DNA from: Longimicrobiales bacterium
GTDB lineage: Bacteria > Gemmatimonadota > Gemmatimonadetes > Longimicrobiales > Gaopeijiaceae
Direction of reading: 5' to 3'
Assembly (NCBI GenBank): GCA_965248195.1
Contig: CBDFIQ010000002.1
Location: 1,824,001-1,888,000 of the forward strand
DNA: 64,000 nt
The notes beneath the pieces were generated by a model. It was not told where the DNA came from. It saw only the letters and a program-made list of their open reading frames with translations, and ran no database searches. Shown here in pieces: positions 35,077 to 64,000 of this stretch; the stretch's first letter is position 1, and each line of letters begins with the position of its first letter. The position numbers and the translations under genes are program-made.

Positions 35077-35095
35077 TAGAAGGCTGTTGAAGGAG
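35077..35095. repeat. Solo copy of the nuoB-C element terminus between ispF and dedA
   Basis: TAGAAGGCTGTTGAAGGAG, 19/19 identical to 62988-63006, preceded by C (CTAG). Confidence 0.85.
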
Positions 35096-35109
35096 CGGGG
35101 CGAGCCGCG

Positions 35110-35610
35110 TTAGGAGGTCCGACGTGCGCCATCGTCTCCCGAGTGCTCCAGAAGCGCCACAGCGTGAACTGCCATGCCCTCTCCAGAACCGATCCAGCCC
35201 ATACCCTCGTTCGTCTTCCCCTTGACGGAAATCGCCTCGAGAGCGGTACCCAGCACCTCTGCGAGCCGCGCTACCATCTCTTGCGCGCTGGGGGCGATCT
35301 TGGGTTGCTCGGTGATTACCGTGACGTCGAGATTGCAAACCCGAAGGTCGGATTCACCGATGAGTTCGACCACCCGCGCCAGCAACTCCATGGAATCCGC
35401 ATCCTTCCAATCGGGCTCGGAAGGGGGGAAAAGGCGACCGATGTCACCCAGAGCCGCGGCGCCAAGTAGGGCGTCCGTGACCGCATGGGCGATGGCATCC
35501 CCGTCGGAGTGGCCTAGAAGCCCTGGGTGATTCGGAATCCGGACACCTCCGAGAACGAGGGAACGCGCCTCGTCAAAGCGGTGCGAGTCGTATCCGAAGC
35601 CGATCCTCAT
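35110..35610 (-). CDS. ispF: 2-C-methyl-D-erythritol 2,4-cyclodiphosphate synthase
   Basis: RIGFGYDSHRF, GHSDGD, GDIG..FP, KGKTNE. Confidence 0.97.
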   Translation of the reverse strand: MRIGFGYDSHRFDEARSLVLGGVRIPNHPGLLGHSDGDAIAHAVTDALLGAAALGDIGRLFPPSEPDWKDADSMELLARVVELIGESDLRVCNLDVTVITEQPKIAPSAQEMVARLAEVLGTALEAISVKGKTNEGMGWIGSGEGMAVHAVALLEHSGDDGARRTS

Positions 35611-61041: not shown

Positions 61042-62243
61042 CGATCGATCTCGCCCAGCACAATGTCCAGAGAGGCGTTGATCATGATCAGGTCGGAAAC
61101 CAAGTGGCCCTCGGCCAGCTTGGCGATCACCGAAAGATTCACAAACGACGGCGGGCGAATCCGCCACCGTACCGGCTTCTCTCCGCCGTCACTTACCACG
61201 TACATCCCGAGCTCCCCCTTCGAACCCTCCACGGCGAAGTAACAGTCACCCGCAGGGACCGAGATGCCCTCCGTGATCAACTTGAAGTGGTGGATCATCG
61301 ATTCCATGTCGTTCATACAATCGGTCTTGCTCGGCAAGGAAACCCGGGGATCCGCAACATTGATCGGCCCATCCGGAAGACGCTCGAGGGCCTGCTCGAG
61401 GATGCGCAAGCTCTGCCGCATCTCCTCCATACGGACCAAATATCGGTCGTAGCAGTCTCCGTTTTCACCGATCGGGACGTCGAAATCGTACGTCTCGTAG
61501 TCGTAATAGGGATTGTCCTTGCGAAGATCGTAATCCACGCCGGAGGCTCTGAGGTTGGGGCCGGTGAAACCGTAGTTGAGCGCGTCCTCTCCAGAGATCA
61601 CTCCGATGTCGAGGGTACGCCCGAGATGGATTCCGTTTGTGGTCAGAAGAGAATCGATCTCGTCCAGTGTCTTGGGAAGGGTCTTCACGAAGTCGCGGAG
61701 CGAGTCGGTCCAGCCCTCGGGGAAGTCCGCCATCATTCCGCCGATTCGGGTGGCCGATGTGGTGATGCGTGCTCCCGTATACGATTCATGGAGCTCGTGA
61801 ATGCGCTCCCGTTCCTGAAACGCGTACAGGAAGGGAGTGAAGGCCCCCACGTCGATCGCGGTCGTCCCGAGCCAGAGCAGGTGGCTGAAGATCCGATCCA
61901 GCTCCATGCACAGCACACGGACGACCTTGCACCGCTCCGTCACCTCGAGTCCCATGAGTTTCTCGACCGCCATGACGTAGACGCAGTTGTAAATCAGGGG
62001 CGCCAGGTAGTCGATGCGGTCCGTCAGGGGAACGATCTGATTCCAGGTCCGGTACTCGCCGAGCTTTTCGAAGGAGGTATGCAGGAAGCCGATGTCGGGA
62101 GTGACCTTGAGCACGGTCTCGCCATCGAGTTCACATAGAAGACGCAGAACGCCATGCGTGGCGGGGTGCTGCGGCCCGAGGTTGATAAGCATGGGCTCCG
62201 AACGAAGATCCGACTCCCCAATCTCCAGGATTTTCTCCGTCAC
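61038..62243 (-). CDS. nuoD: NADH-quinone oxidoreductase subunit D
   Basis: NLGPQHPATHGVLR, DRIDY, C-terminal DIVLGEIDR. Confidence 0.97.
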   Translation of the reverse strand: MTEKILEIGESDLRSEPMLINLGPQHPATHGVLRLLCELDGETVLKVTPDIGFLHTSFEKLGEYRTWNQIVPLTDRIDYLAPLIYNCVYVMAVEKLMGLEVTERCKVVRVLCMELDRIFSHLLWLGTTAIDVGAFTPFLYAFQERERIHELHESYTGARITTSATRIGGMMADFPEGWTDSLRDFVKTLPKTLDEIDSLLTTNGIHLGRTLDIGVISGEDALNYGFTGPNLRASGVDYDLRKDNPYYDYETYDFDVPIGENGDCYDRYLVRMEEMRQSLRILEQALERLPDGPINVADPRVSLPSKTDCMNDMESMIHHFKLITEGISVPAGDCYFAVEGSKGELGMYVVSDGGEKPVRWRIRPPSFVNLSVIAKLAEGHLVSDLIMINASLDIVLGEIDR

Positions 62244-62941
62244 GGAGCGTCCTCCGCCGCCTCGTCCGTCGCGTCGGCCGGCTCCGGAGGTGCGAGCCCG
62301 GGGGCGCCACCCATCTTCAACGCGTCCGCCGTATAGTCGTCGTGATAGTCCTGGGACAGGGCGCGCTTCGTCTGTTCCGCCCTGGAAAAGCGCCCTCGCA
62401 GAGGAAAGTCCTTCCGGAGGGGATGGCCCTCTGCGTAGTTCTGCGGCATCAGAATCCGGCGAAGATCGGGGTGGCCCCTGAAATCGACACCGAACAGGTC
62501 GTAGACCTCCCGCTCGAGCCAATTCGCGGCATTCCAAAGCTCAACCACGCTGTCGAGGGAGAGCTCGTCGAGAGGCAGTTCGCACTTGACTCGCAGCGCC
62601 CGTTTGTGCGCCACGGACCACAACTGGTATACGATTTGTAGCGGTTTGCCGCCCCCGTAATCGACGGCTGTCACGTCGACCAGTAGATCATAGCGCTGCT
62701 CAGTGTCGTCCCTTAGCCACTCCAAAACCGATCGGTTACGGGCAGCATCGACGAACACCACGTGCTGATCGCCCGCCTGCACTTCATGGTGGAGGACCAT
62801 CGCGCCGAATCGGCTTTGAAGCGCCGTCACCGACGGGTGTCCTGCTGGCTCATCGTCGCTACCGCGAGGCGTACCCGTAGGGCTATCCGAGGTCTCGGGG
62901 CCTCGCTCCACCGCGTCGAACGCGGAGCCGCTCTCATCCAC
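62240..62941 (-). CDS. nuoC: NADH-quinone oxidoreductase subunit C
   Basis: DVTAVDY, WLEREVYDLFG..F.GHPDLRRIL, GHPLRKDFP. Confidence 0.96.
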   Translation of the reverse strand: MDESGSAFDAVERGPETSDSPTGTPRGSDDEPAGHPSVTALQSRFGAMVLHHEVQAGDQHVVFVDAARNRSVLEWLRDDTEQRYDLLVDVTAVDYGGGKPLQIVYQLWSVAHKRALRVKCELPLDELSLDSVVELWNAANWLEREVYDLFGVDFRGHPDLRRILMPQNYAEGHPLRKDFPLRGRFSRAEQTKRALSQDYHDDYTADALKMGGAPGLAPPEPADATDEAAEDAP

Positions 62942-62987: not shown

Positions 62988-63294
62988 TAGAAGGCTGTTG
63001 AAGGAGTACAGTGGGCCGCGTTGCGGATGCCACGGCCCCAGCTCCTAGGCGGAGCGACGACGCCATAGCCGTAGCTATGGCTAGGAACTCCAACAACGGA
63101 GATGGGGTCGTGCCACCGCAACCCTTCAAGTTGTAAGGTCATATCATTCATGGTCATGGGCACAGGGCGGTTGTGCGGTTGATCCTGCGTCTCTCCTCCT
63201 CGGAGTAGCTCTGCTACGCCTCGTCGTCGTTCCTTGTCTGAACGCGCACAAGCGCCCTGTGCGCGACTCGCTGTACTCCTTCAACAGCCTTCTA
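62988..63294. mobile_element. Non-autonomous MITE-like element with 24-bp perfect TIRs and two internal 103-nt hairpin arms
   Basis: TAGAAGGCTGTTGAAGGAGTACAG (62988-63011) and its exact reverse complement (63271-63294). Outer TA is likely the target duplication. No credible ORF. Confidence 0.88.
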
Positions 63295-64000
63295 GGGAAG
63301 CAAGTCCTCGGAGCGCTCCGGGCGCGTGGTCTGAGCGAGGGAGGTGAGCTGTTCCTGTTGCGTCGAGTTTCCAAACGGGCCCGCCAGCGCCTCGACCTCT
63401 TCGGCGTCAGCGCGGGGACGCCCTACGAGCGAGGGATCTTCTGCCCTGAGCCCGTAGTGCTCCGACAGGCTCTCATGGCGAATCTTCTCCTGGATCATCA
63501 TCAAGCCGTAGATGAGACCTTCGGGACGTGGCGGGCAACCGGGGACGTAGACATCGACGGGGATGATGGTGTCGATCCCCTGAACCATGGAATAGGTGTC
63601 GAACACCCCGCCTGAGCTCGCACACGCGCCCATCGAGACAGACCACTTGGGCTGCATCATCTGGTCCCAGATCCGCCTCAGGACCGGTGCGAGCTTGTAG
63701 GGAACCCGACCGGCACAAATCAGCACGTCGGCCTGCCGCGGGCTGAACGACATGCGCTCCATTCCGAAACGAGCCAGATCGAAATTCGAAGCGGCCGAAG
63801 CCATCATCTCGATGGCGCAGCACGCGGTACCGAAGGGCATGGGCCAGAGCGAATTTCGCCTAGCCCAATTAACCACGAAATCCACCTTCGTGGTGAGGAA
63901 CGTCGGGCCCCCGAACCCGAGCAGTCCGCCCTTTCGTCCCTCCGCCTGGCCCAGCGCTTCAACGTCCGCGAGGCTCAGCGGATCTCCACCCTCACCGTCG
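63292..64000 (-). CDS. nuoB: NADH-quinone oxidoreductase subunit B (true start probably upstream of 63885, possibly outside window)
   Basis: [32 protein letters not shown]. Confidence 0.97.

Follow-up and report, generated by a model that had tools for sequence, protein, structure and literature searches.

A multicopy MITE with IS1182-type ends and an interior of two inverted, homologous hairpin modules in a Longimicrobiales genome

Two hairpin arms of equal length stand between two genes near the end of the stretch of Longimicrobiales DNA analyzed here (the window, 64,000 nt). A sequence-only reading had proposed them as a candidate new system, possibly an ssDNA site, a guide-like RNA, or a catalytic RNA. 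The locus raises two questions: to what kind of unit the arms belong, and whether their fold is selected as DNA or as RNA.

The element and its copies

The stems, loops, and coordinates quoted in that reading were all present in the sequence. However, the arms are not a free-standing module. They form the conserved interior of a 303-nt element with terminal inverted repeats (TIRs) at positions 62990 to 63292, which is noncoding, with stops in all six reading frames, and a 33-nt inverted repeat of 91% identity encloses both arms (62988 to 63020 and 63262 to 63294). The element is a MITE, present in many copies and bounded by IS1182-type ends. The TA at 62988 to 62989 is the left TA of a YTAR target and is duplicated in this copy, as judged from the sequence and from empty sites in congeners. 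It is followed on the plus strand by a 22-nt TIR (62990 to 63011), which we call type A and which is IS1182-like, and by an inner extension of the terminal stem (63012 to 63019) that pairs with 63263 to 63270 in the inverted repeat and in the DNA fold. The right 22-nt TIR (63271 to 63292, minus strand) is identical to the left one. Between arm 1 (63020 to 63122) and arm 2 (63160 to 63262) lies a central spacer (63123 to 63159, plus strand) that varies between copies. As DNA, the whole element folded into a terminal stem and two arms with a z-score of -11.

The insertion site is the TA of the stop codon of a minus-strand open reading frame (63292 to 63885, TAG stop at 63292 to 63294) that we take, from its sequence, to be nuoB-like. 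The element provides the last base of this stop, which is the first G of the right TIR. A second minus-strand frame (62240 to 62941), presumably nuoC-like, follows downstream on the transcript. Six of the ten congener loci compared were informative, and all six lacked the element at this site and had a single TA or a variant of it there. Elsewhere in the window, a lone shortened type-A end was seen at 35079 to 35115 (plus strand), in or beside the start of a dedA-like gene, with neither arms nor a partner end.

The element is dispersed in this genome (4.86 Mb, 63% GC), with 24 full copies in addition to single-end remnants. Twenty of the copies have type-A ends and four have a different 22-nt end (type B), all around a common interior. 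Matches were found in 34 of the 61 genomes searched, namely, this genome, 27 of 36 from its family, among them all 11 congeners, and 6 of the 24 from two other families. Among named records, the type-A end occurred nearly always in Gemmatimonadota, chiefly Longimicrobiales. We recovered 125 distinct TIR-bounded elements of 169 to 491 nt, one-armed forms included; the range arises from added small hairpins or a missing arm, so that two equal arms of 103 nt, correctly described for the window copy, are a property of this size class and not of the family. A scan of metagenomes with the arm-2 core gave 120 loci. A terminal or arm stem could be detected in 74 distinct ones and not in 40 others, chiefly because too little flank was available; the metagenome loci had at least seven end types, all in the same register. 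The arms were also seen with other end types in two or three viral contigs (46 to 55% GC). Two long arm patterns matched nothing in viral contigs, and a search of plasmids and phages for the element was without meaningful match. At L293:188-1501, an open reading frame between two arms proved to be a gene, presumably SurA-like, flanked directly by two separate element copies.

Homology and fold of the arms

Arm 1, with its purine form on the plus strand, was delimited by its fold and by alignments and consists of an outer stem, an asymmetric loop with AGGC (63047 to 63050) opposite AAC (63092 to 63094), an inner stem with tandem G.A, and an apical loop (63070 to 63073). Arm 2, with its purine form on the minus strand, was delimited by fold, covariation, and covariance model; beneath a GTAGC/GCTAC apical stem it carries a zipper in which three tandem G.A steps are spaced by single C-G/G-C pairs (63189 to 63233). 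When folded with RNA parameters, both 103-nt arms were far more stable than shuffled sequences on either strand, with z-scores on the two strands of -7.3 and -7.1 for arm 1 and of -3.8 and -5.0 for arm 2. The common core that had been proposed for the arms was recovered by homology search: a covariance model built from arm-2 sequences only found arm 1 of the window on the opposite strand (24.9 bits, E of about 0.001), and an arm-1 model found arm 2 of other copies with scores of up to 51 bits. The two arms are thus homologous and point the same way relative to their respective ends, and the match on the opposite strand bears out the suggestion that one module is presented on each strand.

Both arms covaried, in line with the selection on structure that had been suggested for them. 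Pairs changed on both sides numbered 20 of 30 in arm 1 (20 sequences) and 14 of 27 in arm 2 (18 sequences), in hand-picked alignments and against shuffle and slid controls that leave relatedness in; none of 500 shuffles matched the covariation of either arm, and the slid controls were far lower. In 58 copies of near-identical length, the top MI-APC pairs were those of the predicted stems, including the C-G/G-C spacer within the G.A zipper, and on the purine strand of arm 2 one of the spacer pairs switched from C-G to G-C jointly with its partner. The tandem G.A mismatches themselves were nearly invariant, with at most 4% variation at the zipper positions in 48 copies. Since copying within a palindrome would erase mismatches, the persistence of G.A argues for selection on a specific noncanonical fold.

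Optional sub-hairpins with fixed junctions, in the form of tetranucleotide-plus-hairpin modules, were inserted at several stem positions and on both strands, and a CGTAGC-nnn-GCTACGCC apex was present in 37 of the 125 elements. Among the 45 distinct inserted sub-hairpins in a set of 192 elements, 22 of 27 triloops were GNA, in the form C(GNA)G, and the tetraloops comprised six GNYA, four GNRA, and no UNCG. Similarly, the central spacer of divergent families was a short CCC-GNA-GGG hairpin, with GNA in 10 of 11 short central loops. The apical loops of the arms had no loop motif, and GNA was confined to the optional sub-hairpins and the central loop. In the available part of one study (PMC13037366), GNA was the only triloop type that gave a stable DNA mini-hairpin, whose tested RNA equivalent had far lower stability. 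Taken with that partial account, the C(GNA)G triloops are a DNA rather than an RNA signature, and they favor the ssDNA option of the earlier reading. At C2:1415133, C2:2294074, and C2:2400744 of this genome, arm 2 carried a 65-nt branched insertion that, on the minus strand, is itself composed of G.A steps with a C(GAA)G loop.

Two-armed MITEs as such are not new. The sequence-only reading held that ordinary MITEs need no such architecture, which does not agree with bcr1 of Bacillus and CIR of Caulobacter and Brucella, both two-armed and the former with compensatory changes, according to the sections available of PMC3184786 and PMC2229807. From those same sections, the likeness to bcr1, CIR, ERIC, and NEMIS extends to the two-armed or cruciform fold, compensatory changes (bcr1), TA termini, and orientation-dependent effects on transcripts (ERIC). 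In contrast, homologous arms on opposite strands, a conserved G.A zipper, added hairpins with GNA triloops, interchangeable ends, and TIR changes that occur in pairs were found here and do not appear in the descriptions of those four families in these sections.

End types, transposases, and paired TIR changes

End types A to D each resembled the ends of autonomous DUF772 elements in the same bacterial family, with 14 to 16 of 16 nt identical for types A and C and 12 to 14 of 16 for types B and D; type A matched the first 16 nt of the autonomous elements L122 and L123 at 14 to 15 positions. The transposase of a type-C element (L140) scored 373 bits against the NCBIfam IS1182 cutoff of 270, and its genome (G031) also held type-C MITEs, while that of L122 (type A) scored 262 bits, slightly below the cutoff. 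DUF772 transposases occurred in 32 of 121 family genomes. Thirty DUF772 loci were fetched for the comparison of ends, and several had ends matching types A to D; the seven autonomous elements inspected for their flanks all had clean CTA/TAG. None of the 30 loci gave an arm match at useful E-values, and the interior is therefore not a deletion product of the IS. Thus, the element is like the IS1182 family (IS5/IS1182 group) and its MITEs in having a TIR that starts with G after YTA, CTAG-type targets, and no coding capacity, but it is unlike IS1182-derived MITEs in that its interior is not a deletion derivative of a parent IS, that one interior occurs with many end types, including an IS630-type end, and that flank duplication is mostly absent in the genus.

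No IS1182 transposase was found in this genome with the DUF772 profile or by tblastn with six IS1182-type proteins, nor, with the queries used, in seven of the eight congeners searched: G004, G005, and G008 gave none, and neither did four of the other five, for which one protein query was used. The remaining congener, G006, had three distant IS1182-like transposases. The ends also varied beyond this group: in another family of the class, the arm-1 module lay between IS630-type ends shared with an intact IS630 element, and the copies in genome G108 had still other end types. At L163:2210-2530, a single element had two different end types, type A opposite another, which were complementary at 17 of 22 positions; one of its ends resembled the end of an IS1182-like element in G006. 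This genome also contained 13 near-identical copies of an IS5/DUF4096 element at CTAG sites (among L001 to L016); in four of them a single open frame spans the two domains, and most of the remaining copies are split. The ends of this resident element differed from those of the MITE and the arms were absent from it; cross-mobilization of the MITE by it is neither shown nor excluded.

In the 81 type-A copies, 65 deviations from the consensus were identical at both ends versus 37 at one end, and shuffling of the ends gave a mean of 9.2 and a maximum of 19 two-sided changes. Fourteen perfectly matched end haplotypes were singletons among these copies. Compensated variant types were much more frequent in the TIRs (18 over 22 pairs) than in the arms (2 over 11 and 2 over 19 pairs). 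The copies are recombinant mosaics: among the copies of this genome, 1,133 of 2,278 informative site pairs were incompatible in the four-gamete test. Eight sites carry the element in two species. In nearly every case that could be measured there, its best paralogue was at least as close to it as its orthologue; the modules at these shared sites often differed, and junction bases were altered.

Flanks of 2 nt were equal in only 21 of 94 copies, and TA was present at 79 of 188 ends. The window copy has TA at both flanks, and 15 of 22 site comparisons gave a net gain of 1 to 2 nt. Insertion without duplication, or with carry-over of donor flanks, is not claimed from the empty sites, since a number of these seemingly empty sites contain TIR remnants and the element occupies them in at least two relatives. 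Template switching into the flanks was considered and rejected, as complementarity at positions -1 and -2 was below that of shuffles (39 versus 45.6 and 27 versus 35.4, respectively). Collapsed remnants of about 25 to 35 nt, made of fused TIR ends only, were present at C1:738161, C1:1132196, C2:694227, and C2:2533367 of this genome and at L251:69-101, and they are consistent with deletion across an extruded hairpin.

The reading that we prefer, with a probability of roughly 55%, is that this is a MITE with IS1182-type ends whose interior consists of two inverted hairpin modules, and that these likely act by folding ssDNA, bringing the two ends into a paired stem; one end would then probably serve as template for the other, and the element could take up new end types. 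Insertion at YTAR sites, often at stop codons, would be the work of an IS1182-family transposase supplied in trans. Upon transient single-strandedness, either strand could fold into a Y or cloverleaf in which about 30 bp form the terminal stem and one of the arms is in its purine form. The terminal stem may then allow repair or template switching to rewrite one TIR from the other and alter the junction bases, and recombination between copies would shuffle the modules. The invariant G.A zipper and the AGGC/AAC loop would probably be read by an unlinked protein, and the biased orientation of the copies would likely come about because insertions that place the other, polar strand on an operon transcript are lost. 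Points against this reading are that no IS1182 transposase was found in this genome and that equal flanks and flanking TA are so often missing from the copies, in contrast to the clean CTA/TAG flanks of the autonomous elements.

MITE interiors are usually seen as leftovers of a parent IS, whereas here the interior is conserved and the ends are exchangeable across unrelated transposase families and probably phyla. Should the fold act as ssDNA, it would offer a testable mechanism by which MITEs could outlive their transposase, keep their ends matched, and switch host IS families, and such maintenance would be an undescribed way of keeping these elements. A search of the literature open without subscription gave no account of this element family, of one interior occurring with interchangeable DDE ends, or of IS elements or MITEs whose two TIRs are corrected together.

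Alternative readings of the fold

The alternative that survives best is that this is an ordinary double-stranded DNA MITE and that selection on its fold acts on the RNA, in that copies between operon genes persist only when their transcript is compact and nonpolar, as proposed for ERIC, NEMIS, and bcr1. We consider this possible, though not our choice. Its main support is orientation. Of 70 sites, 53 were informative with crude ORF calls, and at 48 of these the transcript bore the minus strand; an independent metagenome set gave 18 to 6 in strict contexts and 27 to 10 when one-sided contexts were included. The replichore bias was weaker (19/24 and 31/46); a replication-strand bias is present but is explained by gene direction and was set aside as a cause. 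Because orientation tracks transcription, an RNA-level role explains it more directly than ssDNA does. Additionally, the favored strand had fewer unpaired C residues in 72 of 94 copies, which weakly fits selection against Rho-type polarity. The neighboring genes were diverse and mostly housekeeping genes, with one tyrosine recombinase among them, and the available sections of PMC2229807 and PMC3184786 describe orientation-dependent effects of ERIC on transcripts and the compensatory changes of bcr1.

Other results do not fit RNA-level selection. The inserted loops are GNA and GNYA rather than GNRA or UNCG, modules and purine-form arms occur on both strands (54 versus 33), the two strands fold equally well as RNA (-175 versus -174 kcal/mol), and the 14 singleton double changes in the TIRs are left unexplained. 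RNA-library contigs covered the element about 30- to 80-fold over nuoB/C, but a likely DNA run gave an excess of more than 100-fold; since that run shows the same excess and the contigs give neither strand nor ends, the coverage does not speak for a distinct RNA. The element matched no promoter or terminator, and IHF-like sites in the spacer showed no excess over shuffles. If tolerance at the RNA level is all there is, the element would be a well-documented yet modest example of a structured MITE.

More tentative, and in our view rather unlikely, is a broader form of the ssDNA reading in which the interior is a portable, cross-phylum ssDNA chassis for MITEs. The arm would be a handle for an unlinked protein, the TIR stem of the folded strand would be cut and resynthesized, and the capture of one local DDE end (IS1182, IS630, or IS5-like; TA or CTAG targeting) would convert the element to that transposase. 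If true, DDE ends would have a route of transposition or end exchange that runs through a folded strand, of which we found no description.

Whichever reading holds, a possible relative outside this phylum is the set of 24 multicopy intergenic repeats of about 113 nt in Geobacter metallireducens, Gmet_R1001 to R1024, which were called predicted short RNA elements in 2009 and left unexplained in the part of the report available (PMC2700814, Fig. S1). They share the CGTAGC-nnn-GCTACGCC apex, found in 37 of the 125 elements, and the flanking loop signature with our arms, a likeness whose homology was judged by eye only, and the exact published motif matched none of the 125 elements. Unlike the elements described here, they are single armed, were read as RNA, and have no reported link to TIRs or a transposase in the sections of PMC2700814 at hand. 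If the fold acts as ssDNA, it would account for this repeat, and Geobacter would provide a culturable test system.

That the arms are REP/REPIN-like or Ssn-like recognition hairpins, spread or edited by an HUH or GIY-YIG ssDNA nuclease with the IS ends as passengers, appears improbable. This reading accords with the tetranucleotide-plus-hairpin modules at fixed junctions and several stem positions, with the independence of the arm from the end type, and with the compensated ssDNA hairpins that REPINs keep (PMC3116915, in the portion available). Like REPINs with their RAYTs and NTS/SRM-Ssn, the element is nonautonomous, with hairpins that are likely selected as ssDNA and show compensatory changes (PMC3116915 and PMC11893778, each from a partial text), but it differs from them in having DDE-type TIRs and in having no RAYT link, no SRM pattern, and no REP doublet. 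No cognate RAYT flanked by the same hairpins was found, the published SRM pattern of Ssn matched 0 of 125 elements, and integron attC boxes (RYYYAAC...GTTRRRY) were absent from both strands. The 64 flanking proteins scanned (of 91 called) contained no transposase, HUH nuclease, or reverse transcriptase, that is, no partner. Y1_Tnp occurred in only 6 of 151 family genomes and was not found in this one. The sole arm adjacent to a Y1 gene belonged to a MITE inserted at the stop codon of that gene: at L422:1235-1399, a one-armed element with a further end type lies at the stop codon of a Y1-transposase-like gene. This genome does contain a short GIY-YIG frame of Ssn-like size, apparently frameshifted (L429:1476-1730, near C2:2553288), which can be counted in favor of a nuclease; the arm-1 model found no match beside GIY-YIG loci.

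A guide-like or catalytic RNA carried between IS ends is very improbable: although the internal loops are conserved, the stems covary, and predicted short RNAs is what the similar Geobacter repeats were called (PMC2700814, as far as available), the loops are of DNA type and stay constant whatever the ends or the site, so that they do not look like guides and nothing covaries with a target, no hammerhead core was present, no reverse transcriptase was found in this genome, and the element had no promoter or terminator match. An Rfam covariance-model search at gathering score gave three weak chance matches at the window locus and none for 20 other copies; without a family match, the arms remain undescribed in Rfam, as had been suggested, and the catalytic option gains nothing. 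Among other frames of this genome, one of 682 amino acids with two Bac_DnaA domains (C2:1101121-1102662) is distinct from dnaA, which lies at C1:800644, about 190 kb from the GC-skew minimum at C1:989028.
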